Assembly: GCA_977017645.1 (NCBI GenBank)
Contig: OZ360229.1
Location: 108,934,001 to 108,998,000, forward strand
DNA: 64,000 nucleotides
Source of the DNA: Torpedo marmorata
Lineage: Eukaryota
Direction of reading: 5' to 3'
The position numbers and the translations under genes are program-made. The notes beneath the pieces were generated by a model, which did not search any database, was not told where the DNA came from, and worked only from the letters and a program-made list of their open reading frames with translations. Position 1 is the stretch's first letter. Each line of letters begins with the position of its first letter. Of this stretch, positions 58 through 50,429 are shown one piece after another.

Positions 58-410
58 ATCGAGGACATCTACATGAGGCGGTGTCTTAAAAAAACAGCCT
101 CTATCCTCAAAGACCCCCACCACCCAGGCCATGCCCTCTTCACTCTGCTTCCATCGGGAAAAAGGTACAGGAGCCTAAAGACGAGCACTCAACGGCACAA
201 GGACAGCTTCTTCCCCGCTGCCATCAGATTCCTGAATAATCAATGAACAAAGACACTGCCTTACTTTTAGTGCACTATTGTTTATAATTTTTTATAGTAA
301 TGTCATTAGATGGTTAATATGAATGTTAATTGCACTATGATGCTGCCGCAAACACAGCGAATTTCATGACTTGTTCATGACAATAAATTCTGATTCTGAT
401 TCTGATTCTG
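58..410 (+). mobile_element. 5'-truncated Rex1/Babar-type LINE 3' end with (TTCTGA)n tail
   Basis: Nearly identical to the reverse complement of 40661-41010. Encodes [40 protein letters not shown]. Ends AATAAA-TTCTGATTCTGATTCTG. Confidence 0.9.
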
Positions 411-683
411 GTTGGAGTTGCTTTGTGTACACTATATAACAAAATAGTAAACCTTATTATAGTGATTGCATTTCACTTTTTTCCATGCTGAACTTGTGGT
501 ATGTGTAGCATTATTGCACAATTGGATCTCTTTTTTAAAAAAATGCAAAAATGATTAAATATGTGTTAGAAATAAAGTGCAACAGTAGTATTCAAGCCTA
601 TCACTGAACCTGATTGTTTCCTGATGCATGGTTAGTTACTGACAAGCAAACCTTTGCCATGCTGGTAAATGGAGGAGTGTCAG

Positions 684-5848: not shown

Positions 5849-6128
5849 CCTCCCTAACCTTTTGCAATTCAACTTTACTACCTGCTTTGCATGGAAAGGA
5901 GATGCAAATATGAACACGCTCATGAGCAAAGCTAACCACTGATCTAGTGATGGTGGCCAGGTGCTACAGACTGCATATAGGACACGTTTGATATCTAACA
6001 GGACTGGCTTGATTGCTTGGAATTCTTCTGGTTTATTTAATTAATAAATAGAGTGGCAGTGTAGCAGAGACAGTCTTCTTGCAAAGGGATACAAGCAAAA
6101 TTGAGAGAAGAATAACTATACCTTACAG

Positions 6129-7214
6129 TAAAAACACAATGCTGGAGAAACTCAGCAGGTCAAACAGTGTACTTTATATAGCAAAGATAAAGGTACATAA
6201 CCAACGTTTCAGGCTTGAGCCCTTCATCAAGGTATGGACAAAATGTCCTTTTTGTTTTTTTGTAATTTTGTCCATACCTTGATGAAGGGATCAAGCCTAA
6301 AATGTTGGTTATGTATCTATTTGGAAGATGGCGGCGCTGCCGGAGCCACTGTAACGGCAGCGCCGCCGCTGGTGCGGACCCGTGGGGAACGAGGAGCGGA
6401 GATATAGCACACCCGCGGGGTCCAACCGCCCAGTCGACCCGTTAAAGGAGCCGATGGTAGTTTTATTTAAAATCCCGCGACCGCGGGGTCTGCGCCCAAG
6501 ATGGCAGCGCCTCTGATTGGCAGCAGCCACAAGGGGTTGCAGACTCCAGAGGAGCGGAGGACTGGCGCAGAGCACCAGAAAACAGGGAGACCATCCCCCG
6601 TTTGAGAAGGAGAAGCAGAGGAGATGACCCACAGGACGGTGACCACGGCGGTGGACCAGTGAGGGGGCTCTGCGGCTGGAAGACCAATGCATGCGGCGGG
6701 CTGCTGGCGACTCGAGGCGAGGAACCCGCGGAGGCTGTGGGCTGCTGGAGACTGCTGTCGGGAGACTCGCGCCAGGCTGCGGACTGTTGGAGGCTGGCTC
6801 GAACTGGCTGAAGGGGTACCAGGTATTGGAACCGGGATGCGAAGGGGTGCCGAAGGCACCGAAGGGTTCCTGACCGTGTCGGAGGTTCGGATCTGGAGCT
6901 CGGGTTGCCAATGGTTTGGACTGGACTCTGTGTGGCTGCGGAAGCGCTGGAGGCGAATCTACAGACACGGGGTGACTCTGGGGGGACTCTCCTTTGCTTC
7001 TCTTTTTCTGACTGTAAGAGGCGCTTCAGGCAATTTCTGCCGATGGCGAATCTGTCTGCCTTACAGCAGGCAAAAGCAATTTAGTGTAATATGACACTGT
7101 TTTATTGCATGACAAAAAATTGAATCTTGAATCTTGAATCTTTAACTTTGCTAAGTTTCTCCAGCATTGTGTTTTTACTTCAACCACGGTATCAACAGAC
7201 TTCTGTGTTTTACT
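6129..7214. mobile_element. Non-coding palindromic Penelope-derived element (two inverted 3' ends), interrupted by a nested insertion at ~6319-7140
   Basis: Left arm ~6127-6245 is the reverse complement of the right arm (6265-6318 plus 7141-7214). Both resemble the Penelope 3' tail at 49840-49990. The 14-bp direct repeat ACTATACCTTACAG occurs at 6115-6128 and 7215-7228. Confidence 0.85.
6319..7140 (+). mobile_element. Unclassified CpG-rich non-autonomous retroelement, copy 1
   Basis: Collinear with 21822-22670. Starts AAGATGGCGGCG and ends CATGACAA(A/T)AAA-(TTGAATC)n. It splits the right arm of the Penelope palindrome. Confidence 0.8.
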
Positions 7215-9879
7215 ACTATACCTTACAGCACGTTCACAAAATAAAACAATCAAACTTCAAAGTGTACAAGTGATATCTACAGCTTTATATTACTTCATCA
7301 AGTAGCAGATTTGTTTTTATGCAAAGATGGAAGTAATACCTGGAATGGCCAGAAGCAACCCCATGGAAGGATTTTGATCTATCTCATAGCAGCTTTCACT
7401 GGGTATTGGTATGTCTTTATGACAATCAAGGGCAACAACATTAAAAAATGGACCAAAAGAGAGAGCAAGTACATGTTCTTACCTATATGGCAGGTGTACA
7501 TATCTACTGCTGAGAGAGAGATGAACAATCAGACATTGTGTTGATAAGATGAAAGATAATAGATTCACAGTCCTACCAACGTTAAGCTACAATATACCTT
7601 TTTATTCTATAAAAGCATGTAACATGTACTGTTCCATTTTAGGCATTAGTGACATGGTCTATGGAAGCCTGAAGAAAAAAGTTTTGTTTTTTTCAGAGGA
7701 TTTAATGTCATTGAGATTTGTATTGCATTTAGTTTGCTGGTTGATCAAGCTATTGGACCTCACACTCCTAAGCTGTATCCTATCCAAGTACTGAGCAAGT
7801 CTGCAGTTGGATGTAAATTTCCAAAACATTTCCTCAGCTGTCACCTCTGCAAAGACCCAGAAACTCCAAGGGAATTTATCATCTTTGTTTTTACACAACT
7901 ATTCCCTCCCTTATTAAACTACAAAAAGGTTGACCCCGGTGAAGTCGATGGATCCAGTTTGTAAAAGGATACAAGAATGCACTATGAATTGATGTGTACC
8001 CTGGACAGTGAAACTTGAATGGTTGGAATTTGAACAAAAATTGCAAGTGACGCTTCACTCCCAGCTACACATCAGCAAGATATTCCAACTGTCGGCAATA
8101 TTTCCCATGATGCCATTTTCTTTAAAGTGATAAGAAGCAATCAACATCAATTCACTTAGATGGGCCAAGAATTTAAATTTTCCTGTTTTGATTTCAGGCT
8201 TAAGGTTCTCCCAACTCAAACATTTTTATGCACTGTTGACAGTATATTGCACAGAAGCCCATTTGAAATGCAAATTTTGGAATTTTCTTCAGCAAACCTA
8301 AACATCCTTTTCCAATATTTAATGACCAAAGTAGCATCCTGAAATTAGGGTCACCTTGATATTAGCTGGAGTGATCAATTTTAAAGTTTGTTTAATCACA
8401 TTCTGAAAGCAGATCAATTCTTTACCTGATAATAAACAGCAGATCTGGATGTCGACCAATTATGAGGATTTAATTTCTTTTGAAAATCTTGCATAAGATA
8501 TCTGGAGATGAAACTGTCATGCTCAAAGGGAGAGGGGAGCTGGATAAATTTGTGACAATCAATCATCTGAATTTGGCTGATATCTGTGGCCATTTCTGAT
8601 CCCTTGAACATCATGGAAAATGAATCTCCCAACAGTGCAAAAGAGACTGCTCAGAAGCTCAAGTTAAGGCACTGAGAGAGAATGGCCCAGTCAGGCCAGC
8701 TCTCTGATTCCTTCCTTTTGGGGGAGAAAGCCCACCTCTACTCCTACTATAGACACCGGCTCTATAATTAGAATACTATGTCAGTGGGTGGGCATAAGAG
8801 TGAGCTAAAAACTCACCCACTCTTCAAGAAATAAGATGAAGTGTTACTTTTAATCTCAAGTACCAGATTGAACTTCGATCGGCTGATTTCTCGCTCATTC
8901 TGGGTAGGAAGTTGGAAGACAATTGCACTGAAAAACCCAAAAGCTAAATTGGTTGCCAAGGAATTCTTGCATGAATGAAAGAATGGGGTGAGTAGTCAAT
9001 GTTGTTTAGACTTTCCTTGTGTGATTTGCAGGAAATATTATTGATCCTCCCAAACCTACAAGGAAAATAAAATGGCTAATGTACTCATTCACTGCTGGTT
9101 TGACTGTAACCCCACTGCCTCTTCATGCACTCAGTTAAAATCTGGCTCTGACGTTATTACTGAAGCCAACACCACATGTCAAGAAGGAGTCACCAGCCAA
9201 GGAGCCAAGTCTCCTTGCTTCCTGATAAGTTTGACTGACATCTTCCAGATATGCAAATGACTTGCTCGACCCACACACTAAGGTGAGAAAACTGCATTAC
9301 ATGCCTCCAAGAACTGTCTGAAAAAATATTAAATTACAGTATTTTCAGAAATAATGTCAACATTTCCAAAGGCAATTTCAAGACTTCAAGTATTAAATAA
9401 AAACTAGAGGTGTCACAGGAAAGATCACACATTATTTGGCCATTATTTTGAAGGAAAGAATCAGAATTTCTATTTTCCTGCTGAAGATAGGATTTGCAGA
9501 GTTTTAACACAGACACACCCTCCATTTCACCCCCACCAGTTTTCACTCCTGCTCTGCTGAATGTTCATGACTTCCTATGTGGTACACTTCCTGCAGCAAC
9601 AGCCTCTTACTGTTCCTCATCTATGTGGAGGAAACATTTATGTAGCCTGATCTGTCATAGAGCTTCAAAGATGCCTGATTCTGACATAATAAAGTGCACA
9701 TCTGGTGCAGCAGTCACTGAATAACAATGATTAAGAATGATTGCTATTTACCTTTCTCTCTCAGTTGTGTTGAGTCAAATTGTTGCACTGACAAGGACCT
9801 TTGGGCCCGGTTCACTCAGTGAATCAGTACCAAGCTAGCTGAGAAGCAAAATATTCACAGGGAATTAAAATTAAAAGTT

Positions 9880-10654: not shown

Positions 10655-11790
10655 ATAAACTGCCACATTCTAGATGGCTTCCTCAGCCTGTGCTGCCTCA
10701 GTTAATCGTGGGTGCCACCAAGTTCTTAACAAAACATTACTCATTCCCCTCTTGCCAAGATAAGTGTCAGTATGCAAACAATCAATAAGTAAAGGCAAAA
10801 GAACATTGGGTATACAGACCTGGCCCACTGGGGTAACCCAGAGATCAGTGGACACAGAGTGGGAACACCCATGTGTCTCCCATAACAGCTTTTCATTTTC
10901 AGGGGCATCCCCCTGTAATTGTATTATCTTAGTCATGTCTGGTTTACCCTTTTCTGGTGGTGAATCGGTAGCTTGAATCACAGCTACATGATCACGTCAA
11001 AACGACATTTTGTGCCTCATGGGAGGCCAATTTAGCAGTGGCATCGGCCCACTTGCTTGCCTGCGTGACTGAGGTGTCATCCTGTAGGTGTGCCGAGCAT
11101 TTTACAATCGCCAAGTGTTTGGGTAAGAGTATAGCCTGAAGTAAATTTTTAACATATGCGGCATTCTGAATGGAACTCCCTGTAGAGGTCAAGAAACCTC
11201 GGTGAGACCACAAAGTTCCAAAGTCATGTGCTACCCCAAAGGCGTAGCGGGAATCAGTATAAATAGTTGCTTCTCTATCTGAGGCCAAAATGCAAGCACG
11301 GGTGAGAGCAAACAATTCTGCTTTCTGGGCGGATATGGGAGGTTGGAGGGCAGAAGATTCAATGGTCTGTTTGCCGTCTACAATGGCATATCCACTCAAC
11401 CGGTCCCCCCTTTCGGAGACAGACAATGTACCGTCCACATAAAAGGTGACCTCTGCTTTGGCTAAAGGTATGTCCTGTAGGTCAGGGCGGGGAGAGGTCA
11501 GGAAGTGGTTTCGGGATAGACAGTCATGGGATGGTCCTGGGAGTTCACTAGGAGGGTCTGTTAAAAATGTCGCTGGATTAATGCTTGTGGAGAAAGCAAA
11601 GGAAAGAGGAGGGTTATGAAGGAGTGCTACCTCGTAGCGATTGAGACATGTCTGGGTAAGATGTTGGGTTTGGTGAGATGTGAGAAGTGCTGTAATGGTG
11701 TGTGTGGAATAAATCACCACTGGTTGATGCAGAGTAATGTTAGCTGCAGCTGTAACAAGAGAATAAATAGCTGGTAGGACCTGAGTGCTT
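10655..11790 (-). pseudogene. pol: Endogenous retrovirus pol fragment (connection, RNase H, integrase N-terminus), class I / epsilon-like
   Basis: RNase H motifs FYVDG, SAQKAELFALTRAC, IYTDSRYAFG and RGFLTS. These are followed after a frameshift by the integrase Zn-finger start (CLHTDTYLG...WWHP). No flanking LTR seen. Confidence 0.9.
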
Positions 11791-13077: not shown

Positions 13078-13872
13078 CTGCAAAAAGCTATTTGATAGAT
13101 GACAAAAACATGATAGTGCTCAGAAGGTCAAAGAAAATCCTTCATAATCAAAGAACTGAAACAAATAATATCATAGAAAATAGAAGTTACGGTATATGTC
13201 GGATTGGTAATTCATTGGAACAATATGATTCAAGGTGTTTTCATGACTCTGAAATAATAAATTGGCCAAATTAATGTTGTTATTTTAACTGTAAGTTCAA
13301 AAATATATCACCATTCCATTGCAGTTTCAGACATATTCTGTAATATTGCTGGTATTGTTTCAAGATAACTCAACCTTAAGCACAGAAAAGGTTGACTCTG
13401 TGAGACCAGGAGCTCTCCTCTGTGCTCTGAAAAGATGTGTGAGGGGTTAAACCTCGTTCACAAAATTTAAGTGGATTTTGATTTCCTTGTTAAATTCAGA
13501 ATACATCAACATAATTTCTCAATTTCCGAAGCAACCTCTCCAACCTTGCGTCTATCATTTTCAAATTAGGATGATTTACAGCATGGAGTCAGGTGATTCT
13601 GGTTCACAATGCGTCAGCAGTTTCAGGAAGAAACTTCTGTGACATCATTTGAACCTTTAGTAATTTTACTAGTTTCCAGCCAATGCATTTCCACCCAAAC
13701 AAAATGTTTTTGCTTGGAAGGCTGCAATAAGTTTCAAATATGCATTTGAATACTTGAAAGTTTAAATCCAACACAATCCATCAGTTCCATTTTATTCAAC
13801 TGGAAAAAATGCAATATCAAAGCAACTCTAGAATAATGTTACTAAGACCCTTATAGCTGTGTATTCCACCAT

Positions 13873-14056
13873 CTCCCACTAATGCCATACCTGCAACTAA
13901 CACCACACCTCCCATTAACGCCATACCTCCCAGTAATGCCATACCTGCAACTAACACCACACCTCCCATTAACGCCATACCTCCCACTAATGCCATACCT
14001 GCAACTAACACCACACCTCCCATTAACGCCATACCTCCCACTAATGCCATACCTCC
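13873..14056. repeat. Minisatellite, 54-bp unit x ~3.4, built from three 18-bp variants
   Basis: ctcccactaatgccatac-ctgcaactaacaccacac-ctcccattaacgccatac is repeated almost perfectly. Confidence 0.95.
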
Positions 14057-16717
14057 TATTTCTGGATTTTTTTCCTTGGTCTGGAATCTGCTCTGTGGCC
14101 TTGTGGCACAATTGCACTTCAAAAGAACACAATTGTAAGTTACAAATTCCACCTGGCCTGAATTTGTACAGTTATAGTGTGGGAGGGACTATTGCCAATA
14201 AAATCATCGACTCAGAAGCACTAAACATGCTACATAGCAAAAATTGCATGTTGTACTCTGCTACCAAGATTTGGTTGTGTTGACTGAAACAAAATTGCAT
14301 TTTATACGCAGAGTCAAACTGCCATGTGGCAGATTCAGTGCTAATGACAGGATGAGTTCTTAGGTATGTGTTTACGACGTGATCCAAGTGTACAATCACC
14401 TGCTGCCTGAGGCTAGCTGAATACAGCAATTGATCACACTGTCAACCCCATGAATTGAGATCTCCCAAATTTAAATAAACAAAAAATGATCAATAATAAT
14501 TTGATAGTAAAATAACCACAAACATTGAAAGTGCAAAATCTAACATTATCTCCAAGATTATTCCAACTATCTTCTGCAACAAAGAAATTAGAACAAAATC
14601 TCACATAGCCAGAAATAGTTTTTAAACGGGTACCATTGTTTACATTTAATTTCTCATTGAAATGCATCATGCCAACAAAATAAAAGGGATCCTGCAACTT
14701 TAAGCAATCACATGGCTTCCCTTTTTATAAACTAGTAACACAGAAACAGAGATGCCAATAGTACAGGGTACTGAAAATGCCTTCCCAGTGTGCATTTCAA
14801 ATGGTGATCACATTCTCGTGATTGGTTCGCAATTCCGCCCAAGGTCCAAGGCAGCACAGAAAAAGCCCACAGCAAAATTTGTAAGTACATTGGACTCAGT
14901 GCAGAAATGTGGTTATGTGCACACATAATACACAATCAAATGGAAACTGAGGAGTTATATATTTACTTTAACATACATGACATATACAATTGTATTAGTT
15001 TCCACAATTTATATATTATGGTGATAGTCGATGTGGGCCTAAACATTAGTGAGATATATTTCTGTAATAGAATTGCTCTAAGATAAAGATCCTTAAACTT
15101 TAATGTAAAACTGCCCCTTTTGTTATAAGTGTGCAGCTATCTGCTAAATGTTTGCTCAGTTAGCCAATGAGCTACAGTCCACCTGTTAATTAGCCAATGG
15201 TCTACAGGCATGTTACATTAGTTACAAATAGTATACAGGTAAATTATATTATCCACCTAGTAAAACCACAGACAGCTTTACATACGTGAGGAAAAGGTAC
15301 CTGCATAAATAAACATCATGAAAAGCATAAAATATGTAAACACTACATCAGCTAAAACATGGAGGTTTAAAAACTGGAAAATCAACAGTAACTGAACTAA
15401 CAGTTCTGACAGCAATTATGCACCAGCGCCCTGCAGCCAACAGAGGGGAAATATCAGTATGGACTCACAAAAAAACAAATACTTGTCAGCACAGAACCTA
15501 TATGCGATGTTTTGTAGCCTGTGCACAACCTGTGCAGGGCAAAGTTTATTTGTTCTGTTCGGGTTAGAGGCAGTGCGCTGTTCAATGGTGGCACGCCACG
15601 TCAAAATTTGAAGAGGAGGTGGACGAAGAGTATCACCAGTAGCCATAGTGATGGAGTCACTCCTGCAGAAGCACGGTTATTTCCATCAAGCACTGCTCCA
15701 GGACCTGTGGAGTGACAAGCACATATTACCAGCTCAGTGACATGCACCAACGTTTGAACCTTACAGTGATGTAGATTGTTGCTCACCCTGACCGGAAATG
15801 CCTCTGAGAGGTGCTTGAAAGCTTTAAAACATATTCAGGAACAGTGAGGTCGAAATTCATCCTTTGTCACATGCTCTAAATGCATGATACAATGGCATAT
15901 CTTGAATCCTGTTTCCACACCACCAGTTCAACACATCCAAAGCCAAAATTCAAGCTTAGCACATGCGTTTGAAGATGAATTTGCTCCTCAGTTACTGTCC
16001 ATAAGGTCCCTCTGTTGCATTTCCTTTAACCTCTGGAATATTCATTGAAGTTCTACATTTCACTGTGAAAATTCTAAAATAAATTAAATTGGGATTCCAA
16101 ATTCAGCTTTCTGTATTTAAATGTTATCACAGTTTGGTGTCAGGTTTTATTGGTAAATTTTAGTTCAAAATCTGTCAAAGAAGGAGTTAGTGTTTTTTGG
16201 TATGTTCAAAGTTTCAGGCCAAACATGGTTGCCATCTGATGTTGCCTTATTGTATCTCTCATTCTTCATTTATTGGACATCTCATTCTTTGTTGAAATAT
16301 AATTGATTGATAGGATAAGTAGTCGCACTGTTAAAGAAGCCAATGATCTTCTGAAACTGGGCTTAAAGTTAACCAATAGATAATCACCTTTGGTTGCTTA
16401 TGTTTCAAAGGCATTGAAGGATTGGATTCTGTTTCAACTCCCCAATTCAATCATCCTGCCCGCAAAGTGCAGACAGCATGGGGTCTCAAGGGAGACATTT
16501 CAAGCTGAAACAATGTTAGGGTCACCAGCATATTCCTCCAAATAACTAATCAATAGACAACTTAGGTTGGATTATCACAATGATACATGAAAGAAGAATT
16601 TGAATATATGAAGAATGTGGCCTGAAGGGTGAAGTTTCCTTTGCTTCTTGCGGGTTATTTTTCACTTGAGTTTCTCTAGGAGAAGCAGATGTAATGGGCC
16701 AATTCTGCTGATCCCAT

Positions 16718-21821: not shown

Positions 21822-22670
21822 GAGCGATGGCGGCGCTGCCGGAGCCGCTGTAGCGGCAGCGCTGCCGCTGGTGCGGACCCGCGGGGAGCGTGGGAGCGGA
21901 GATACAGTGCTCCCGCGGGGTCCATCCACCCAGTCGACTGCCGTCGGTTCCGCACGGGCTTTGAACGGCCCGTTAAAGGAGCCGATGGTGGTTTTATTTG
22001 AGATCCCATGACCACGGGGTCTGCGCCCAAGATGGCAGCGCCTATTAATTGGCAGCAGCCATGAGGGGCTGCAGACTCTGGGGAAGCAGGGGACTGGAGC
22101 AGGGCACCAGTGGACGGGAAGATCACCCCCGTCTGAGAAGGAGAAGCGGAGGAGACGACCCACGGGACGGTGAGCACAGCGGCGGACCGGTGAGGGGCTC
22201 TGAGGCTGAAGTACCAGTGCATGTGGCAGGCTGCTGGCGACTCGAGGCGAGGAACCCGCGGAGGCTGTGGGCTGCTGGAGACTGCTGTCGGGGGACTCAC
22301 GACGGGCTGCAGACTGCTGGAGGTTGGCTCGATCTGGCTGGAGGAGCACCAGGTATCGGAACCGGGATGTGAGGGGGTGCCAAGGGCGACCTGACCGTGT
22401 TGGAGGTTCGGATCTGGAGCTCGGGATGCCGATCGTTTGGACTGGACTCTGTGTGGCTGCGGAAGCTGCGGAAGTGCTGGAGGCGAATCTATGGACGCTC
22501 GGTGTCTCTGGGGGGACTCTCTTTTGCTTCTCTTTCTCTGACTGTAAGGAATGTTAGAGGCGCTTAGGCAATTTCTGCCGATGGCAAATCTGTCTGCCTT
22601 GCAGCAGGCAAAAAGAAATTTTGTGGTATATGACACTGTCTTATTGCTATGACAATAAATTGAATCTTGA
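21822..22670 (+). mobile_element. Unclassified CpG-rich non-autonomous retroelement, copy 2
   Basis: Collinear with 6319-7140 apart from small indels. Ends TATGACAATAAATTGAATCTTGAA. Confidence 0.8.
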
Positions 22671-23304
22671 AGTTCTAGCCTTGAGATAAAAAATAGTTTT
22701 TTATGCAAAGTTTCATTGACTTATGATTTAGGGGCTGCATTTATGGAAATTGTGTTGTGTGATGATCTCAAATGCAACAACAGGGACATTCATTTAAATG
22801 TCCTTTTGTTGCCATGAAGATTGTAATGAATGAAATTAATGCAATTCAAGATTTTTAGCAAATGAAAACAAATTAAGTGCAATTAAGTGACAAAATTCAA
22901 CATTCAAAGATAACATGATAAGAACCAAAAAATACAATATCCTGAAATAGTTGCAGAACGAACTCGTCAATGAAGAGTTATACAAAAACTTCCTGTTTAA
23001 ATCAAAGGTTAAATTTTATATCATTCTGGAACACAGTTTTAAATTGCATTAAATAGCATTATTAAAAGGGCATTATATATTAGATTTTGTTTCAAGATTT
23101 GCCCAATACTTTAAGCAGCTGACTAATTCAGAAGGCTAAGAATTGAGTGATAATTTTGATGTGCTACTTTTTGACCAAGGTGCTAATGGAAAGCTGCTCT
23201 ACATATTATGCCTCCTTTTCTGATAACTGGAGGGGAGAGGGAGTGGAAAAGAAGGCTTAACTGGTTTGGAAGAGTGAATAAACTAAAACATCTAAAGGGC
23301 GAAA

Positions 23305-34864: not shown

Positions 34865-35160
34865 GACAGCAGATGCTGGAATCTTGAGCAAACAAAAAGC
34901 TGCTGGAGGAACTCGGTGGGTGGAAATGGTCAGTCAACATTTCAGGTTGGGATCCTTTATCAAGATGAAAGAGGCGATATTGTGTATATAGCTGGTGGAG
35001 GGCCTATGAGGAGAAAGGGCAGAGGACAGGTGGGGGAAGTGGTCACACAGGGAGAGGGTGAGATCACTGGGAAGGGAGGGGGGGGCAGAAATAAAATTAG
35101 AGAGAATAATGGAAGTGGGTAAAGAAGAAATGAGAACAGTGGAACCAGGTGGGGAGGGGG
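34865..35160 (-). mobile_element. Old Penelope 3' end remnant
   Basis: cagcagatgctggaatcttgagcaaacaaaaagctgctggaggaactc...caacatttcaggttgggatcctttatcaag followed by a G-rich tract, as in the antisense Penelope tail. Confidence 0.7.
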
Positions 35161-35484
35161 GAGCCTTCTTCTGGACAGCCCTAAACCTAACGGTAAGAAC
35201 ATTGATTTTTTTTTTCCAGCTTCCGTGCCCAACAATGGCATATAAATATAACGTGATACCCAAAGGGGCAAGAATCATATAGTGCCCTTTCCGGTCGAGA
35301 CAGCATCGACTTTTCCAACCTGTCCCTCTTGTTCTTCGGGGTCGCTGCTTGCAAAGTAGTGATCTCGACTTCATATGCTGCAGCAGGTTAACTAGCAATG
35401 TTGTGTGTCAGCAACTCACCTGCATTCTCAAAATGAGGACAAGCCAATTATCCAATTGAGATGAAAATAAAATATAAAAATAAT

Positions 35485-35646
35485 TGCAGATGCTCAAAAT
35501 CTGAAATAAAAACAGAAAATGCTGGAAACATTCATCAGATCAGATAGTGTCTGTGGGAAGAGATGCAACATTAACTTTTCAGGTCCAGGACTTTATTTCT
35601 CTTTCACCAGTTGACCTGCCTGAGTATTTCCAGCATTTCTGTTTCC
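35485..35646. mobile_element. Old short palindromic Penelope-derived element
   Basis: aacagaaaatgctggaaacattca ... tgagtatttccagcatttctgttt form inverted arms resembling the Penelope terminus. Confidence 0.7.
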
Positions 35647-36550
35647 TCCGTTTGACATGCTGCTACGTCTGTGCTACGTCGATTTTGAATCTCCAGTCCC
35701 ATATGTTTTACATATCCTCACTGCAATGCACAGAAACAATTCAATTACCATGTTATATTTCCCTCAAAACAAGGTCAAGCAAACATGATGAAGTGGATTT
35801 TTTTTTGATTGAGAGCAGCAATCTTTATGAAAGAGATTTGATGATTGTATTTTTTTCCTTTTAGGAATGAGAAATGCCAGATGATTCCTTTATCATTTCA
35901 TTACATTGTCCTTAGATCTAAATAACTCATGTTGCAATGCAATTTGTACATGAAAACAAATGAAAGGTTTGCAATCATTTTTTCATGAAGATATTATCCT
36001 TCAAAATGTCTGTCAGATGTACAATGAAGTGCAATTCTGTGTTACATTTACTGTATATTGTAATCATTAATTCATGGGTTTGACTTGCATTGGTCTCTAA
36101 GAATCCCTTGGCAAATACTTTCAAGATGCTGGAAATAACAGTTTTGATTAGTATTATTCCTCAGGGTGCCCCAGTAGTTTAAGCTTTCAGCAGTTAGCAC
36201 TCTTGCTAAGAGAGTTGCTAGCATATATAACAGGCCTGTTTGACATTCACTTACCTTGTCTGTGGAATCTAGGACATTAGATAAAAAGCCAGCAAACAGC
36301 AAAATGTTTCTTTGGGAGTGGGGTTGAGAAGAATTTGCATTTACCAAATCACACAATAACTGCATCTCTGGATGGACATTATGTATCACCTTGTCGTCAA
36401 GAATGAGGGTGTTGCAAAGAGATCCTTTTTAATAAGGTGGGGCACAGAGGTAATTTAAGAAATACCTATGGATCATCAGAAGTCTGTATTATAAAATGTT
36501 AGGAAGCAGCTTTGTTGCTGCAGTGCCTCTGCTTTTGTTTTAACCTTAGC

Positions 36551-36813: not shown

Positions 36814-37176
36814 TTGTGCAGAGGTGGCAGCGCTATATCACATAAAGGTTGAAAATATTGTCAGTTTAGTCAAAACAAACCACTCAGACACATCTCATGA
36901 TTACTACTTGCAATGGAAAAACAGGCAGGGGCCTGGGTGAAGGCAGACTATTCATCCTTGCAGTAAGGGAACAGTGTCTTGGGAAGATTGGAACCTAAAG
37001 GAGGGGCTTAAGTTTCAAAAAAAGCAAATGGTTCTCCTCAGGACTCATTAAGAATCCTTTCATGACCAAACAAACAAAAAAAAAGAGATTATAAATAGTT
37101 TGAGTGAGTGGGGAAAATGGATGCCATGGATTTCATCATGAGAAAATGTGAGGCCATTGGGCCAGTAAGTTTAGAC

Positions 37177-37336
37177 GAGTGGTTCTCAACCTTTTTTTTC
37201 CACTCACATACCACCTTAAGTAATCCCTTACTAACCACAGAGCACCTATGGCATCCTATGCCAAAGGTGCTCTGTGGTTAGTAAGGGATTACTTAAGCTG
37301 GTGTGTGAGTGGAAATAAAAAGGTTGAAAACCACTG
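37177..37336. mobile_element. hAT-Charlie-type palindromic MITE
   Basis: TIRs (G/C)AGTGGTTCTCAACC / GGTTGAAAACCACTG. The whole 160 bp is a near-perfect palindrome. 8-bp TSD GTTTAGAC / CTCTAGAC (NTCTAGAN-like). Confidence 0.9.
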
Positions 37337-37517
37337 CTCTAGACCTATCAAAGATGGAATCGAGAGTTTTAGAAATGCTGTAAATATAAAAAGCAGTCGG
37401 CATTCAAAGAGAACATGGACCATGGCCATCTACAGATAGCAACCAAAACTTTCCAAAGAATGCCAAACCTCATATCAAGAGTCTTGAAATGCAAGAGTGA
37501 GAAGTTATGCTGGACTT

Positions 37518-38389
37518 TGTTATGGACCATGACTGACCATTTGGACTGCGGACAGTCAGCAGGAAGGATGAAGTCTTTTGAGTACACACTGGGACCAGGT
37601 ACTGAAAGAGTTAACATGCCCAGGGCTGGCTGTGCTCAGAGAGAGAGACACATAGAGAGAGAGACAGGCTGTGAAAAAGATACTTTGTTGCTCTTTTGGA
37701 AAAGCAGGTGCAGAACTCTGCAAAAGCAGTCAGTGTAGTTGGAAAGGCTGGAGAGAGAACAGCAAAACCAGAGGCTTGTGCATTCCAGCTAGAAAGGCTG
37801 TGGAGAAGAGCACATGGCCTCCTTTATCAGTAAAAGACTGATTTAAAGCAACTTTCGTGGATAACAGGCGTGAGATCAGCTAGATGGGCTGTGAGATCCA
37901 CGTACCTGCCTTCATCAGTGGAACACTGATTTGAACAGCAACCCTTGTGCACCTACAAAAGGAAAGTCATCGGAAGGATATAGCAGACCAAGCATTCGTA
38001 AGCTTAAACCAGTCAGTGTCTCTCTCTCCAATGTTCATTAAGAAGTCCTTCGTGCTAGCACACAGAGCTGAATTTAGACCCTGAACATAGAGAGTGAATT
38101 TTTGTGGACTGTATTTTTGGGACTAACTTATTTTTATGACTGACCTGGGGTTTTGGGGAAGGTTTTCCATTTTTACATGAGGGTTGGACACAGACTGTAA
38201 TGGTTTGGGCTTTTCACTCACACACACACACTTCAGATAAGTATTTGATAACTGAATATTTGTTATAGACGTTTATAGTGGGGTTAATCGTTAATAAGTT
38301 ATATATTGAATTGTCTTTAATAAATATAAATTTAAATTTTAACTCCTTTGCATTGCATCGTCTGTCGTTGCTGGTTTGAATTTGTAACA
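37518..38389 (+). mobile_element. Solo LTR, copy 1 (Gypsy- or ERV1-type)
   Basis: TGTTA...TAACA termini, 4-bp TSD ACTT/ACCT, AATAAA near the 3' end. Collinear with 59056-59918. Confidence 0.88.
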
Positions 38390-42325: not shown

Positions 42326-43450
42326 AAAGTGTTCAATGTAATCAATGTTTATGCATTGATTTGGGGGGTTAATTTAAAGTATTTTTTACCATTCTGCTTG
42401 GAGGTATTTAGATTGGCTATATAGCAAAATATATATAGGTTGCAGGGTGAATTCTAAGTGCTGATAAACCAGACTGAAATTTACTACAAAAAGTCTATTG
42501 TTGTACAACCATTGAATAATTACTCCAACAAAACTGTGATCTGAACGCCCACTGTGCTAATTAGCATGGTTCAAATTAATTTCTGTGTGAGATACGATTA
42601 AATGGCTAATGTATTTTCCAGCAACACTCTCACTCCTAGCAACATGAAATTCCAACCAGTAGATTTTTCCCCAGTAATCTAATTTTCATGATTCAAAATG
42701 TTGTGGATCTTGGATATTTCCATGTCAAGTACAATGAATGACCGGTGCATTTTATATCTGTAGGGATATAATCCAATTTAAGCATCCACCTAACTTGGTA
42801 TTCATTCTTTTGACAATCAGAATATCCACATGAGAACACAATGTGTGTTGTTCAAATGCTCCACTATCACAGACCTTTCCTTTGCCTCTCCACCACTCTC
42901 CTTCCTTCACAAGTCAAAATTTGTTTGTGTTCTAGTTCTTTTTAGTTTTGGTAAAAAGTCATCGATCGGAAATGTTAACCCTTCATTGATGTTGCCTGGT
43001 GCAAGGAGAAATGCACAAATTTTCAATTAAAAAAAGAAATCTTTGAATATTTTCAGACAAAGTGATAAAAATCAACAATCATGGCAAAAAAAAAATTCAA
43101 AGATATCAAATATAATATCCAAAAGTAAACACGAAAATCTGTAGACACCGTGGTTAGAGTAAAAAACACAAAAGCTGGAGAACTCAGCAGGTCAAACAGT
43201 GTCTTTTATGTAGCAAAGGTAGAAATACATAACCGACGTTTCAGGCTTGAGCCCTTCAAAGTATGAGAAAATGCCGGCAGATGTCCGAACAAAGGAGTGA
43301 GGGGGGAAGGGGGGTGGCAAAGGCAGGAGATAATAGGTGGAGAAAGGAGGGAGGGGACAGTAGCAAAGAGGGGGAGGAGGGATGGCTGGGTAGCTGGAGA
43401 AACACAGGAAGGACAGGTGAGGGGGGAGGGGAAGGGAACAACAAGCAGGT

Positions 43451-45631
43451 TTAGTGGAAAGCAGAAAAGTCAATGTTAATTCCATCTGGCTGGAGAGTGC
43501 CGAGACGGAATATGAGATGTTGTTCCTCCAGTTTGCGGGTAGTCTGGGTGGGATAGTACATGAGGCCATGGACAGACATGTGAGTGTGGGAGTGTGACCC
43601 AGAATTGAAATGGTTGGCCACTGGGAGGTCGCTGTTGTTGCGAACCGAGCGGAGGTGCTGAGCGAAGCGATCTCCCAATCTACGACCGGTCTCTCCAATG
43701 TATAGAAAGCCACAAAGGGAGCACCGGATGCAGTAAATAAGTCCTCTGGATGTACAAGTGAAGTGTTGCTTCACTTGGAAGGCCTGTTTGGGGCGCTGGA
43801 CCGTGGTGAGGGGGGAGGTGTGGGCGCAGGTGTTGCACCTCCTGCGGGCACAGGGGAAGGTTCCGGGGGTGCGATGGGTGGGGAGGGACGAGTGCACGAG
43901 TGAATCACGGAGGGAGCGGTCCCTACGGAAGGCCGAGAGGGGAGGAGAAGGAAAAATGTGTCTGGTGGTGGGATCCTGCAGCAAGTGCCGGAAATTCCGG
44001 CGGATAATGTGTTGGATGCGGAGGCTGGTGGGGTGGTAGGTGAGGATGAGGGGTATTCTATGTTTGTTGTGTCTGGGGGCAGAGGGGGCCAGGGCAGATG
44101 AGTGGGAAATGGAGGAGATGCGGGTGAGGGCTGAGTTGATGGTGGTGGAGGGGAAGCCACGTTTGTGGAAAAAGGCAGACAGTTCAGAAGATCTGGACTG
44201 GAAGACCTCATCTTGGGAACAGATGCGGCGGAGGCGGAGAAATTGAGAGAAGGGGATGGAGTCCTTGCAGGGGACAGGGTGTGAGGAAGTGTAGTCCAGA
44301 TAGTTGTGGGAGTTGGAGGGTTTGTAGTAAATGTCGGTGGAAAGCTTGTCTCCCGAGATGGAGACAGAGAGATCCAGGAAGGGGAGAGTGTTATCGGAGA
44401 TGGACCAGGTGAGTTTGAGATCGTGGTGAAAGTTGGATGCGAAGTGGATGAAGTTGACAAGCTCATCGTGGGTGCATGAGGCAGCCCCGATGTAGTCGTC
44501 GATATACCGGAGGAAGAGATGAGGGGTCTTGACTGTGTAGGCTTGCAGCATGCATTGCTCCACAAAGCCCACAAACAGGCAGGCGTAGCTGGGACCCATG
44601 CGGGTACCCATGGCTACTCCTTTGATTTGGAGGAAGTGGGATGAGTTGAAGGAGAAGTTATTGAGAGTAAGGACAAGTTCTGCCAGGCGGAGGAGGGTGG
44701 TGGTAGAGGGTGACTGGTCGGGTCTTTGGTCCAGGAAGAAGCGAAGTGCTTTCAGACCTTCTGTGTGGGGGATAGAGGTACAAAGCGATTGGACATCCAT
44801 GGTGAAGATGATGCGTTCCGGTTCAGGGAATCTGAAGTCATTGAGGAGATGGAGGGCATGTGAGGTGTCGCGGATGTAGGTGGGGAGGGATTGGACCAGG
44901 GGAGAAAAGATGGAGTCCAGGTAAGATGAAACTCGTTCGGTGGGGCAGGAGCAGGCAGAAACAATGGGTCTGCCCGGATGGTTGGGTTTGTGTATCTTGG
45001 GTAGAAGGTAGAAACGGGCAGTGCGGGGGTGGGGGAGAATGAGGTTGGTGGCCATGGAGGGGAGGTGACTGTAGGTGATGAGGTCGGAGATGGTGTTGGA
45101 GACAGTGGCTTGATGTGCTGTGGTGGGATTCTGTGGGAGGGGTCGGTAGGAGGAGGTGTCTGAGAGTTGTCGACTGACCTCGGCAAGGTAGAGGTCAGTG
45201 CGCCAGACCACAACCGCACCGCCCTTGTCTGCGGGTTTGATGGTGAGGTTGGGATTGTTGTGGAGAGAGTGGAGGGCAGAGCGTTCTGAGGAGGTGAGGT
45301 TGGAATACGAGAGGGGGGTGGTGAAGTTGAGACGGTTGATGTCTCGGCGGCAGTTGGAAATAAAAAGGTCCAGAGCGGGCAGCTGGCCAGGGCGGGGTGT
45401 CCAGGAAGAGGAAGAAGGCTTGAAGCGGGAGAAAGGGTCTTGGGTGGGGGGTGGTGAATCACGGTCATGGAAGTGAGCACGGAGGCGGAGGCGACGGAAG
45501 AAGAGTTCGGCATCATGGCGTGCGCGGAACTCGTTGAGGTGTGGGCGGAGGGGGACGAAGGTGAGGCCTCTACTGAGGACGGAGCGCTCCGTCTCAGAGA
45601 GGGGAAGGTCGGAGGGGATAGTAAACACCAA
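43451..45631 (-). CDS. Penelope-like RT + Cys-rich linker + GIY-YIG endonuclease (probably 5'-truncated)
   Basis: Motifs IKPADKGG, TMDVQSL, QIKGVAMGTRMGPSYA, RYIDD, FPCARRRCNTC linker and LIYCIRCSLCGFLYIGETGR. The ORF is uninterrupted. Confidence 0.92.
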   Translation of the reverse strand: MVFTIPSDLPLSETERSVLSRGLTFVPLRPHLNEFRARHDAELFFRRLRLRAHFHDRDSPPPTQDPFSRFKPSSSSWTPRPGQLPALDLFISNCRRDINRLNFTTPLSYSNLTSSERSALHSLHNNPNLTIKPADKGGAVVVWRTDLYLAEVSRQLSDTSSYRPLPQNPTTAHQATVSNTISDLITYSHLPSMATNLILPHPRTARFYLLPKIHKPNHPGRPIVSACSCPTERVSSYLDSIFSPLVQSLPTYIRDTSHALHLLNDFRFPEPERIIFTMDVQSLCTSIPHTEGLKALRFFLDQRPDQSPSTTTLLRLAELVLTLNNFSFNSSHFLQIKGVAMGTRMGPSYACLFVGFVEQCMLQAYTVKTPHLFLRYIDDYIGAASCTHDELVNFIHFASNFHHDLKLTWSISDNTLPFLDLSVSISGDKLSTDIYYKPSNSHNYLDYTSSHPVPCKDSIPFSQFLRLRRICSQDEVFQSRSSELSAFFHKRGFPSTTINSALTRISSISHSSALAPSAPRHNKHRIPLILTYHPTSLRIQHIIRRNFRHLLQDPTTRHIFPSPPLSAFRRDRSLRDSLVHSSLPTHRTPGTFPCARRRCNTCAHTSPLTTVQRPKQAFQVKQHFTCTSRGLIYCIRCSLCGFLYIGETGRRLGDRFAQHLRSVRNNSDLPVANHFNSGSHSHTHMSVHGLMYYPTQTTRKLEEQHLIFRLGTLQPDGINIDFSAFH

Positions 45632-45841
45632 GCAGGGGTTAGAGTGGGGATCGGTGTTGTGGAGGGTGTTGGGGGGAGGGGGAGGGTTGGGGAGGTCAGA
45701 GGGGGGAGGTAGAGGGTGGGGGAGGTTGGAGGGAGGGGGAGGGGGGTCGGAGGGGGGAGGTGGGGGGTAGGGGAGGTGGGAGGGTGGGAGAGGGGGGTAG
45801 GGAGGGTAGCCAGAGAGAGGGGGGGATGGAGGGAAGGGAAG

Positions 45842-47410
45842 GCCCGTTTCTACCTTCTACCCAAGATACACAAACCCAACCAACCGGGCAGACCCATTGT
45901 TTCTGCCTGCTTCTGCCCCACCGAACGAGTTTCATCTTACCTTGACTCCATCTTTTCTCCCCTGGTCCAATCCCTCCCCACCTACATCCGCGACACCTCA
46001 CATGCCCTCCATCTCCTCAATGACTTCAGATTCCCTGAACCGGACCGCATCATCTTCACCATGGATGTCCAATCCCTTTATACCTCCATCCCCCACACAG
46101 AAGGTCTGAAAGCACTTCGCTTCTTCCTGGACCAAAGACCCGACCAGTCACCCTCTACCACCACCCTCCTCCGCCTGGCAGAACTTGTCCTTACTCTCAA
46201 TAACTTCTCCTTCAACTCATCCCACTTCCTCCAAATCAAAGGAGTAGCCATGGGTACCCGCATGGGTCCCAGCTACGCCTGCCTGTTTGTGGGCTTTGTG
46301 GAGCAATGCATGCTGCAAGCCTACACAGGCAAGACCCCTCATCTCTTCCTCCGGTATATCGACGACTACATCGGGGCTGCCTCATGCACCCACGATGAGC
46401 TTGTCAACTTCATCCACTTCGCATCCAACTTTCACCACAATCTCAAACTCACCTGGTCCATCTCCGATAACACTCTCCCCTTCCTGGATCTCTCTGTCTC
46501 CATCTCGGGAGACAAGCTTTCCACCGACATTTACTACAAACCCTCCAACTCCCACAACTATCTGGACTACACATCCTCACACCCTGTCCCCTGCAAGGAC
46601 TCCATCCCCTTCTCTCAATTTCTCCGCCTCCGCCGCATCTGTTCCCAAGATGATGTGTTCCACTCCAGATCTTCTGAAATGTCTGCCTTTTTCCACAAAC
46701 GTGGCTTCCCCTCCACCACCATCAACTCAGCCCTCACCCGCATCTCCTCCATTTCCCGCTCATCTGCCCTGGCCCCCTCTGCCCCCAGACACAACAAACA
46801 TAGAATACCCCTCATCCTCACCTACCACCCCACCAGCCTCCGCATCCAACACATTATCCGCCGGAATTTCCGGCACTTGCTGCAGGATCCCACCACCAGA
46901 CACATTTTTCCTTCTCCTCCCCTCTCGGCCTTCCGTAGGGACCGCTCCCTCCGTGATTCACTCGTGCACTCGTCCCTCCCCACCCATCGCACCCCCGGAA
47001 CCTTCCCCTGTGCCCGCAGGAGGTGCAACACCTGCGCCCACACCTCCCCCCTCACCACGGTCCAGGGCCCCAAACAGGCCTTCCAAGTGAAGCAACACTT
47101 CACTTGTACATCCAGAGGACTTATTTACTGCATCCGGTGCTCCCTTTGTGGCTTTCTATACATTGGAGAGACCGGTCGTAGATTGGGAGATCGCTTCGCT
47201 CAGCACCTCCGCTCGGTTCGCAACAACAGCGACCTCCCAGTGGCCAACCATTTCAATTCTGGGTCACACTCCCACACTCACATGTCTGTCCATGGCCTCA
47301 TGTACTATCCCACCCAGACTACCCGCAAACTGGAGGAACAACATCTCATATTCCGTCTCGGCACTCTCCAGCCAGATGGAATTAACATTGACTTTTCTGC
47401 TTTCCACTAA
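45842..47410 (+). CDS. Penelope-like RT + GIY-YIG, 5'-truncated second arm
   Basis: Same protein from ARFYLLPKIHK onward, with no stops. The first ~42 aa of the listed 564-aa ORF come from the G-rich junction. Confidence 0.9.
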   Translation, partial: ARFYLLPKIHKPNQPGRPIVSACFCPTERVSSYLDSIFSPLVQSLPTYIRDTSHALHLLNDFRFPEPDRIIFTMDVQSLYTSIPHTEGLKALRFFLDQRPDQSPSTTTLLRLAELVLTLNNFSFNSSHFLQIKGVAMGTRMGPSYACLFVGFVEQCMLQAYTGKTPHLFLRYIDDYIGAASCTHDELVNFIHFASNFHHNLKLTWSISDNTLPFLDLSVSISGDKLSTDIYYKPSNSHNYLDYTSSHPVPCKDSIPFSQFLRLRRICSQDDVFHSRSSEMSAFFHKRGFPSTTINSALTRISSISRSSALAPSAPRHNKHRIPLILTYHPTSLRIQHIIRRNFRHLLQDPTTRHIFPSPPLSAFRRDRSLRDSLVHSSLPTHRTPGTFPCARRRCNTCAHTSPLTTVQGPKQAFQVKQHFTCTSRGLIYCIRCSLCGFLYIGETGRRLGDRFAQHLRSVRNNSDLPVANHFNSGSHSHTHMSVHGLMYYPTQTTRKLEEQHLIFRLGTLQPDGINIDFSAFH

Positions 47411-47595
47411 ACCTGCTTGTTGTTCCCTTCCCCTCCCTCCTCACCTGTCCTTCCTGTGTTTCTCCAGCTACCCAGCCATCCCTCCTCCCCCTCTTTGCTA
47501 CTGTCCCCTCCCTCCTTTCTCCACCTATTATCTCCTGCCTTTGCCACCCCCCTTCCCCCCTCACTCCTTTGTTCGGACATCTGCCGGCATTTTCT

Positions 47596-47636
47596 CATAC
47601 TTTGAAGAAGGGCTCAAGCCTGAAACGTCGGTTATG
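47596..47636 (+). ncRNA. Minimal type I hammerhead ribozyme motif of Penelope
   Basis: catac-tTTGAAGA-aGGGCTcaAGCCT-GAAACGTC-ggttatg contains the core, stem II, palindromic ACGT stem III and stem I. Confidence 0.6.
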
Positions 47637-48510
47637 TATTTCTACCTTTGCTACATAAAAGACACTGTTTGACCTGCTGAGTTCTCCAGCTTTTGTGTTT
47701 TTAAATATAATATCCATGTTAACATTCAAAGGAAAAATTGTGATAATATTAAGGGCTGAAAATTTATAGGAGCAGTGAATAATAATAAAAGGCAGGAAAT
47801 GTTATTTGTTCAGAATGATCAAAATGGCCTTTATATTAAGGACATAACAGCAAGAAAAATTATTGACCAGAAGTGGTTTTATTTTCCAGTTTAGTCGTTT
47901 GCACTTGACTGATCATTTGAGTTTGACCGTGATTCTCACCCCTCTTAAAACCATTGATAATTTGATAATATTTACTGCCATTTATCGATGACTGAATGGT
48001 TCATTCTGCTACCGACTGCACATTGCTGACATCAATACCACACTGTGGCTTAAGAATAAGATCCACGTTAATTCACTTAAAAATGATTTATTTTTCACAA
48101 AGCAGGGAAAAGTACCAGCAAAGTAGAATTTAATGGAAAATATTCTCTTTTCACCATTTTTTTCATCATTTTCAATGTTTCTTTCTTTAAATTGTTGTTT
48201 TTGTGGACCATTGTTCCAATCTGACCACCATCTTGAGCGAAAAGCTCAATTATACATGTGTAAACCTCAACCTGTCATGTTATTAGGCATGTCAATAATG
48301 TGGCACAACATGAACAAGCAAAGTTCACCTTCTGTCAATGTACTTTTAGTAGGAATTGCAGTCTAATGATTGGGACAGGATCTCAAAGTTAATTTCCCAC
48401 TGCCCAGTGGAAGAAGATCATGTTTGAGCCACGAGTACTCAATTTGAAATCAGATAACTCTCCACTAACTGTAAAATGAATCTTGTTTCTACCTTAATCA
48501 AAATGGTTCA

Positions 48511-49990
48511 GTCCCAGCTACGCCTGCCTGTTTGTGGGCTTTGTGGAGCAATCCATGCTGCAAGCCTGCACAGGCAAGACCCCTCATCTCTTCCTCCGTT
48601 ATATCGACGACTACATCGGGGCTGCCTCATGCACCTGCGATGAGCTTGTCAACTTCATCCACTTCGTATCCAACTTCCACCACGATCTCAAACTCACCTG
48701 GTCCATCTCCGATAACACTCTCCCCTTCCTGTATCTCTCTGTCTCCATCTCGGGAGACAAGCTTTCCACCGACATTTACTACAAACCCTCCAACTCCCAC
48801 GACTATCTGGACTACACTTCCTCACACCCTGTCCCCTGCAAGGATTCCATCCCCTTCTCTCAATTTCTCCGTCTCCGCCGCATCTGTTCCCAAGATGAGG
48901 TCTTCCAGTCCAGATCTTCTGAAATGTCTGCCTTCTTCCACAAACATGGCTTCCCCTCCACCACCATCAACTCAGCCCTCATCCCGCATCTCCTCCATTT
49001 CCCGCTCATCTGCCCTGGCCCCCTCTGCCCCCAGACGCAACAAACATAGAATTCCCCCTCATCCTCACCTACCACCCCACCAGCCTCCGCATCCAACACA
49101 TTATCCGCCAGAATTTCCGGCACTTACTATAGGATCCCACCACCAGACACATTTTCCTTCTCCTCCCCTCTCGGCCTTCCGTAGTGACTGCTCCCTCTGC
49201 GATTCACTCGTGCACTCATCCCTCCCCACCCATTGCACCCCCGGCACCTTCCCCTGTGCCTGCAGGAGGTGCAACACCTACGCCCACACCTCCCCCCTCA
49301 CCATGGTCCAGGGCCCCAAACAGGCCTTCCAAGTGAAACTACACTTCACTTGTACATCCAGAGAACTTACTTACTGCATCCGGTGCTCCCTTTGTGGCTT
49401 TTTCTACATCGGAGAGACCGGTCGTAGATTCGGAGACCGCTTTGCTGAGCACCTCCTCTCCGTCTGCAACAACAGCGACCTCCCAATAGCCAACCATTTC
49501 AATTCCGGGTCACACTCCCACACTCACATGTCTGTCCATGGCCTTATGTACTATCCCACCCAGACTACCCGCAAATTGGAGGAACAACATCTCATTTTCC
49601 GTCTCGGCACTCTCCAGCCAGATGGCATTAACATTGACTTTTCTGCTTTCCACTAAACCTGCTTGTCGTTCCCTTCCCCTCCCCCCTCACCTGTCCTTCC
49701 TGTTTTTCTTCACCTACCCAGCCATCCCTCCTCCCCCTCTTTGCTGCTGTCCCCTCCCTCCTTTCTCCACCTATCATCTCCTGCCTTTGCCACCCCCCTT
49801 CCCCCCTCACTCTTTTGTTCGGACGCCTGCCGGCATTTTCTCATACCTTGATGAAGGGCTCAAGCCCGAAACGTCGGTTATGTATTTCTACCTTTGCTAC
49901 ATAAAAGACACTGTTTGACCTGCTGAGTTTCTCCAGCATTTGTGTTTTTTACTTCAACCACGGTGTCTACAGATTTTCGTGTTTTACTTT
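48511..49990 (+). mobile_element. Third, older 5'-truncated Penelope copy (monomer, frameshifted)
   Basis: Same family as 45842-47702, with frameshifts near 48980-49150. Direct repeat TGGTTCAGT at 48504-48512 and 49991-49999. Confidence 0.92.
49842..49882 (+). ncRNA. Minimal type I hammerhead ribozyme motif of Penelope
   Basis: CATACC-TTGATGA-A-GGGCTcaAGCCC-GAAACGTC-GGTTATG. Predicted cleavage after GUC at 49875. Confidence 0.7.
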
Positions 49991-50429
49991 TGGTTCAGTT
50001 ATTCATTGGTGAAACTGTCCAGTCACTGATGAGGATGAAGCAAGGCGGAATGAAAGTCCCTTTCCCCTACCCGAGAGAATATTTTCTAGGAGCATCATCA
50101 TCATTTGACATATGACAGCATGATTTATTAACATCAGTAAATCTGAGATTTGCTGACACATTGAACTCAATAATTCTAAAATTGTTTCAATAGACGATTG
50201 CTGGCACAACGTAATTTGTTTGAAGAATAAACCAGATTGCGATGGAGGTTCTGAAACCTTCTTGTCCATTGCTGCTATAAATATCTATCAACAGCTGCAC
50301 AGATTCAAGGGATATTTAAGTAAAAGTGCGTAATTATGTTAAGCCACAAATTAATGATATAAAGAAGATGGTCTTCGGATACTATTTAAATTGGTTTAAA
50401 TACAATTTTAAAATAATGATATGTGGGGC

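Follow-up and report, generated by a model that had tools for sequence, protein, structure and literature searches.

We analyzed a 64,000-nt stretch of the Torpedo marmorata genome (contig OZ360229.1, positions 108,934,001 to 108,998,000 of the forward strand), which we call the window; positions are counted from its first letter. At 6115–7228, the window contains a short non-coding palindrome that looks like a miniature inverted-repeat transposable element (MITE). We think that this miniature is probably a one-off, old insertion for which a Neptune-type Penelope-like element (PLE) acted in trans, and that the palindrome is a by-product of retrotransposition and not a MITE. The arms almost certainly derive from a PLE, because they are 85–92% identical to the young PLE end at 49.8–50.0 kb, which is the 3' end of an element with an open reading frame (ORF). 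Besides the PLE origin, the evidence establishes a target site duplication (TSD), two fixed end sites, the nesting of a second repeat within the palindrome, and the age of the insertion.

Structure of the insertion

The miniature is flanked by a 14-bp TSD, ACTATACCTTACAG (6115–6128 and 7215–7228), which has no other copy in the window on either strand. In a 50 x 50 junction search, chance would give about 1.6e-5 such pairs of 14-mers. The TSD copies are separated by 1086 bp, of which an 823-bp insert (6319–7141) accounts for most, leaving 263 bp. This remainder is non-coding: two PLE 3' ends lie head to head around a T-rich spacer, with their 3' ends facing outward. A sequence-only reading of this DNA had already described a 14-bp TSD around ~265 bp that consist of two inverted Penelope tails and a ~20-nt spacer, and our coordinates bear this out. 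The spacer is 18 nt long (6247–6264), or 20 nt if it is measured from the exact inverted match at 6244. The parts are as follows.

6115..6128, plus strand: left TSD copy, 14 bp; its boundary is ambiguous by 2 nt, as the last 2 nt also match the PLE inner repeat
6129..6246, minus strand: left arm, a tail-less PLE 3' end that reaches the inner repeat and begins ~10 nt upstream of hammerhead stem I; the limit at 6246 is taken from contig loose ends
6196..6236, minus strand: putative left-arm hammerhead motif (minimal type I), by pattern match; core pattern intact, U at position 3
6247..6264, no strand: T-rich junction spacer, 18 nt, with repeated T(n)G units that resemble the start of the right arm
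6265..6318, plus strand: first part of the right arm; its hammerhead motif (6273–6313) is decayed and has no core-pattern match
6319..7141, plus strand: nested 823-bp repeat with 7-nt tandem units at its end; ATCT is a 4-nt duplication or microhomology
7142..7214, plus strand: right arm, second part, with a 26-nt internal deletion after 7153, the inner repeat at 7169–7179, the tail at 7180–7214, and the outer repeat at 7205–7214
7215..7228, plus strand: right TSD copy, 14 bp

Of the 90 positions that the two arms share, 5 are mismatched (5.6%). The PLE terminus contains the repeat GTGT(n)ACT twice, with starts 36–37 nt apart and ends 34–35 nt apart, which matches the ~35 nt given earlier. The left arm ends in the inner repeat, and the right arm extends 35 nt further, to the outer repeat. 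At the termini themselves, the inverted match is only ~10 nt long; the tail shifts the long inverted match by 35 nt.

The junction between the arms contains a 13-nt hairpin (6236–6248). TGTCC is present at 6244 and again at 6269, with a T(n)G stutter in between. Neither the PLE 3' region nor the 230-bp flanks offered a convincing source for the spacer; the best local matches there scored only 12–22.

The nested repeat has a second copy at 21826–22671, with 11% mismatches between the copies. It is possibly a non-autonomous partner of a Rex1/Babar-type long interspersed nuclear element (LINE), judging from a weak similarity of the 3' ends (10/500 shuffles). Repeats of this ~820-bp type are GC-rich and are very abundant in the contigs of all four related-species runs considered below.

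The parent element and the other head-to-head pairs

Two young insertions of the element lie at 43–50 kb, and an older head-to-head pair was identified with a profile of PLE ends:

43108..47716, both strands: young head-to-head dimer, with a tail-bearing copy at 43122–45841 (minus strand) and a tail-less copy at 45842–47702 (plus strand)
48504..49999, plus strand: 5'-truncated monomer with a tail and a 9-bp TSD (48504–48512 and 49991–49999)
35451..35659, both strands: older head-to-head miniature, with a tailed arm at ~35464–35594 (minus strand) and a tail-less arm at ~35596–35645 (plus strand)

The dimer has a 14-bp TSD (43108–43121 and 47703–47716). Its arms are 0.9% apart, and the tailed copy reaches 822 nt further 5'. 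The 5' junction of the monomer shows 2 nt of microhomology.

The dimer contains an 801-amino-acid frame (43454–45856, minus strand) with DKG, GVAMG, and YIDD motifs, followed by CARRRCNTC (at amino acid 669) and GLIYCIRC..YIGET. Cysteines lie between the GIY- and YIG-type motifs. For this frame, the only Pfam match was to RVT_1, below the cut-off (E 9e-4), with none to GIY-YIG, but its homologues carry RVT_1 and some also carry PF01541. The closest named homologues are shark and ray proteins (62–71% identity). The element thus combines what is expected of a PLE that encodes an endonuclease (EN+): a PLE-type reverse transcriptase (RT) with GIY-YIG-type end motifs, pseudo-long-terminal-repeat (pLTR) ends with a TSD, and a tail of 34–35 nt. 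Between the RT and the endonuclease lies a CX4CX2C linker, which fits the CX2-5CxxC motif described for Neptune and shared with Nematis (PMC8557442). By this linker motif, the element is a putative member of Neptune or Nematis, not of Penelope or Poseidon.

The core pattern of a minimal type I hammerhead ribozyme has candidate matches in the monomer, in the right arm of the dimer, and in the left arm of the miniature. Fish PLEs have been reported to contain hammerheads of this minimal type I (PMC4209133). Stems I and II are present in the fold predicted for the monomer end, with a z-score of only –0.9; across seven stretches, the folding z-scores were unremarkable (–1.12 to +0.65), and we build no claim on them. 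Rfam returned no hammerhead match for the monomer end. It did return a match to sR41 (E 2.9), which we took as chance. The arms of the miniature start 8–10 nt upstream of stem I, so that the expected cleavage site lies ~40 nt downstream of their start. This suggests that the miniature was not copied from self-cleaved RNA, in agreement with uncleaved RNA as the main template (PMC11167929).

With a profile that did not yet include its own sequence, the older pair was detected at E 2e-5 and 5e-3 (the best of three shuffles reached E 0.76). Its arms are 17% apart, and 0/1000 shuffles were as good. The flanking duplication (35451–35463 and 35647–35659) is degenerate, with 10/13 positions matching; 29/2000 random position pairs were as good (p≈0.015). 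One arm is tailed and the other ends at the inner repeat.

All three head-to-head pairs in the window therefore have exactly one tail and a duplication of 13–14 bp, even though their ages differ widely (arms 0.9%, 5.6%, and 17% apart). The asymmetry had been pointed out for the miniature and the dimer, each with one inner and one outer end, as had the outer end of the monomer; all of these hold. The inner junctions differ: the miniature has T-rich filler, the dimer has a direct joint (with 822 nt present only in the tailed copy), and the older pair is joined inside the hammerhead region. The tailed arm reaches further 5' in the dimer and the older pair and is about equal in the miniature. A strict rule of one tail and a ~14-nt stagger is plausible from these three pairs; if each arm had an independent 50:50 choice, then one tail in 3/3 pairs would have p=0.125. 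Arm endpoints and TSD lengths had been proposed as a test of a fixed mechanism. The endpoints do fall at two fixed sites, but constancy of the TSD holds only for the pairs (14, 14, and ~13 bp) and not for the monomer (9 bp).

We excluded solo PLE remnants from the pair counts; copies with a tail are more readily detected. Three such remnants, decayed ends of older subfamilies with hammerhead-like motifs, are found at 34866–34966 (minus strand), 52497–52625 (minus strand), and 50889–50975 (plus strand). They seem to reach the tail and have no clear inverted partner and no visible TSD. The remnant at 50889–50975 scores no better than a reversed-window control. We also considered a shared target motif: AANA precedes the tail-side cut at three sites and is absent at the older pair, so we do not claim it.

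Contigs from related species

We compared the miniature to contigs from four runs of related species (X1, X2, X6, and X7). These contigs cannot show which ends pair. Seven runs covered part of the region, each less than half of it. The figures for joints and loose ends below are from the 15 of 2726 joints and the 24 of 5398 loose ends that were listed, and some are uncounted.

The right junction is bridged with at least 31 nt on each side in three of the four runs (X1, X2, and X7). The left junction is covered in two (X7 and X2), with only 24–28 nt of the arm, and those records are 8–9% from the window. X6 has no cover of the flanks. Because the junctions are present in contigs from related species, the insertion is old and shared, at an orthologous site.

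Both classes of PLE end exist in large numbers in the related species. Among the listed loose ends, contigs that end before 6127 and continue in a tail-like consensus number 797 in X1, 960 in X7, 2020 in X2, and 189 in X6. Contigs that end before 6128–6130 with mixed AT-rich sequence number 1094 in X7 (343, 354, and 397), and those that end behind 7214 number 293 in X7 and 434 in X2. Ends at two fixed sites (6127–6130 and 7214), together with arms that are PLE 3' ends, support the earlier proposal that such palindromes arise by retrotransposition rather than by a transposase.

Listed contigs that reach 6246 run into ordinary PLE upstream sequence and not into the spacer (406 in X2 and 59 in X6). 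Depth falls from 30054 to 2198 in X6, and from 532842 to 51456 in X2, between bins 6206–6256 and 6257–6307 (this is summed contig depth, which is not copy number). Other head-to-head joints with different junctions are among those listed, namely 6235->6275, with one contig each in X7 and X2, and 6232->7168.

The PLE terminal region of the related genomes also contains short tandem duplications (joints 6168->6128, 6197->6131, and others); one of them, a 41-nt go-back, is present in three of the four runs. Pattern searches of metagenome contigs and viral contigs gave 0 matches. We dropped three matches to a 21-nt pattern (L001–L003) as chance, as they extend for only ~24 nt in unrelated GC-rich contexts.

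Mechanism, alternatives, and known systems

We propose that the miniature and the 4.6-kb dimer are products of one process. The GIY-YIG endonuclease would nick both target strands ~14 nt apart, which would leave 14-nt 3' overhangs, as suggested by the TSD. One exposed 3' end would prime cDNA synthesis at the outer RT start site and give the tailed arm (the order of the strands is our assumption). The other target end would be joined to PLE sequence at the inner start site and give the tail-less arm; most likely, that end primed a second cDNA (twin priming). In the miniature, both copies would have stopped 8–10 nt upstream of the hammerhead motif and been joined via the 18 nt of stuttered T-rich filler. 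Later, an unrelated repeat landed in the right arm, and a further 26 nt were deleted from this arm.

In twin priming by L1, both target nicks prime, which produces an inversion inside one TSD, with the inverted part copied from another segment of a single RNA. Unlike in L1, both arms of the miniature copy one 3' end, so two RNAs, a tandem RNA, or a fold-back would be needed.

The sequence-only reading had suggested rule-governed priming, with the first and second strands primed in different T-rich registers. The two end sites and the single tail in 3/3 pairs are consistent with a rule. The link between site and strand is doubtful, given the p-value above and the use of the same sites in vitro. 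Base-paired priming is doubtful as well: the primer ends match the PLE at only 0–2 nt. The primer ends are also not rich in A, so start sites chosen by the protein are a better reading of the T-rich repeats than base-paired registers.

The most serious alternative to twin priming is a fold-back. Here, cDNA from the outer site would stop past the hammerhead and self-prime a second arm that ends 35 nt short, and this second arm would join the other target end via microhomology. The product is the same as from twin priming; the second step differs. A fold-back would explain the end asymmetry without second-strand priming on RNA, and self-priming has been proposed for palindromic PLE junctions (PMC3846280). 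The hairpin at the junction and the two copies of TGTCC with a T(n)G stutter are consistent with it, as is the microhomology between the tail-less arm and the TSD (2 nt in the miniature and 1 nt in the dimer). The model also requires that the tailed arm be longer 5', as it is in the older pair and, by 822 nt, in the dimer. However, in the miniature the tail-less arm seems to be the longer one at its 5' end, by 0–2 nt, and for the dimer the model implies an 822-nt loop for which no pairing is visible. Also, purified Poseidon protein from an anole cuts and extends both strands on RNA (PMC11167929). Overall, we lean towards twin priming for the second arm, and we consider a fold-back possible but the less likely route.

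The 263-bp palindrome might instead belong to a self-amplifying non-autonomous family, which would be transcribed and re-mobilised whole by the PLE. Non-autonomous derivatives of PLEs do exist (PMC8557442; bioRxiv 2026.07.22.740005), both arms begin at nearly one position before the hammerhead, and a similar head-to-head joint occurs in two organisms, at ~6x single-copy depth in one. However, each of the three pairs in the window has a junction of its own, contigs at 6246 go on into normal PLE sequence, and depth falls past 6256 (in X6 and X2). We consider a family unlikely and favour de novo formation as the likely origin of the miniature.

An origin of the paired arms in two separate PLE insertions, or in a longer dimer that suffered an internal deletion, is improbable. 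The related-species contigs do contain PLE ends in great abundance, PLEs are reported to cut their own pLTR (PMC11167929), and microhomology deletions are common in PLE copies (PMC3846280); the right arm has one such deletion. But a single pair of TSDs encloses both arms, the arms start within 2 nt of one position, and the junction has extra sequence instead of microhomology.

That a transposase moved the miniature as a DNA-transposon MITE is largely refuted: although it is a short non-coding palindrome within a duplication and its termini match for ~10 nt, PLE sequence with a hammerhead makes up the arms, the long inverted match begins 35 nt off one end instead of forming flush terminal inverted repeats, an ORF-bearing dimer shares its ends and TSD length, and the duplications (14, 14, ~13, and 9 bp) do not have the constant length of a superfamily. 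DDE transposons mostly have TSDs of 2–11 bp, and to our knowledge, none of their common superfamilies makes one of 14 bp. By comparison, a conventional hairpin element in the window (37175–37337), which resembles a true hAT-type MITE, is flush at both ends, with arms of 63 nt and a duplication of 8 bp (6/8 match).

Several observations weigh against a one-off insertion with a fixed geometry. The 9-bp TSD of the monomer means that 14 bp is not general, and inverted PLE copies in rotifers have TSDs of 8–10 bp or none (PMC3846280). Start sites were alike on both strands in vitro (PMC11167929). Among the listed contig records, none represents an empty allele of the miniature's site, and none crosses the spacer (the latter is weak evidence). 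Contig depth at the joint 6235->6275 is 192, as compared to ~30–35 for the single-copy flank (in X7), so some head-to-head junctions may recur or be amplified. Some rows at 6129–6130 in X2 and X6 are tail-like, which makes the number of copies with inner ends uncertain, and the contig data give neither the pairing of ends nor counts of copies.

The architecture of inverted pLTRs with one tail has already been published, so in this respect the miniature is largely ordinary. Among the EN+ PLEs of Adineta vaga (Pen2a_Av, Pen2, and Pen3a), head-to-head is the commonest arrangement, with palindromes at the junctions (PMC3846280). The miniature resembles these in its head-to-head pLTRs and flanking TSD, and pairs of pLTRs are described there as acting in trans (PMC3846280). 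The A. vaga tail is ~31 bp, optional, and on one inverted pLTR; the tail of the miniature is 35 nt, on one arm. The A. vaga copies contain an ORF or captured DNA and have a TSD of 8–10 bp or none, whereas the miniature has arms of ~120 bp and a 14-bp TSD (PMC3846280).

The general scheme for PLEs likewise includes an inverted 5'-truncated copy, a 30–40-bp tail that is often at one end only, a hammerhead in the pLTR, and, for Neptune and Nematis, the zinc-finger motif in the linker (PMC8557442; PMC8969392). It ascribes the tail to resolution by the endonuclease, and the passages of these two papers on the scheme give no fixed TSD length and no rule of one tail per pair. Unlike in the general scheme, the miniature has no direct pLTR or tandem.

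Two other systems are informative. In PAc, a Poseidon element from Anolis, two RT start sites likewise bound the tail, ~100–140 nt downstream of the hammerhead, and both strands are cut and extended on an uncleaved RNA template, with no homology between primer and template (PMC11167929). PAc has an AC-rich start region and an ORF that begins within the hammerhead (PMC11167929). The start region here has U-rich repeats, and translation from the corresponding ATG would run into a stop after 17 codons. Like the non-LTR retrozymes, the miniature is short and non-coding, is derived from a pLTR, and has a type I hammerhead, but retrozymes are head-to-tail tandems of hammerhead units and the miniature is head-to-head with a TSD (bioRxiv 10.64898/2026.07.22.740005). 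In titles and the openings of abstracts, we found no non-coding inverted PLE miniatures of cartilaginous fishes and no fixed stagger; older papers on PLE structure and repeat databases were outside this search.

The window as a whole is repeat-rich vertebrate DNA. A LINE at 40640–42098 (minus strand) has Pfam matches to RVT_1 and ALKBH8_N and 6-nt tandem units at its end, and a second 3' fragment is found at 58–417 (plus strand). An RNase H frame at 10992–11789 (minus strand) looks like a remnant of endogenous retrovirus pol. A broken L1/Tx1-like element (59840–64000, plus strand) has a match to apurinic/apyrimidinic (AP) endonuclease, and its 5' region has a second copy in the window (related segments at 37511–38390 and 59049–59919). 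There is also a minisatellite at 13855–14072, with an 18-nt period and a 54-nt higher-order structure.

For annotation, the lesson is that PLE palindromes like the miniature can be mistaken for MITEs. More tentatively, we speculate that double-ended insertions of the elasmobranch Neptune lineage have, in subfamilies that differ widely in age, a ~14-nt stagger and exactly one tailed arm, with templates often starting at the upstream edge of the hammerhead (both arms of the miniature and the joint 6235->6275 fit such a start, and the older pair does not), and that some junction types may have been amplified further as palindromic non-autonomous families. PLE integration after the first strand is described as still unvalidated (PMC11167929). 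Copies with clean TSDs are plentiful in this lineage, so an assembly-wide count could test the fixed placement of the tail, the stagger, and the route of the second strand. If the strict geometry is true, then thousands of MITE-like palindromes would be a fossil record of PLE second-strand synthesis, and these palindromes could decide between twin priming and fold-back.

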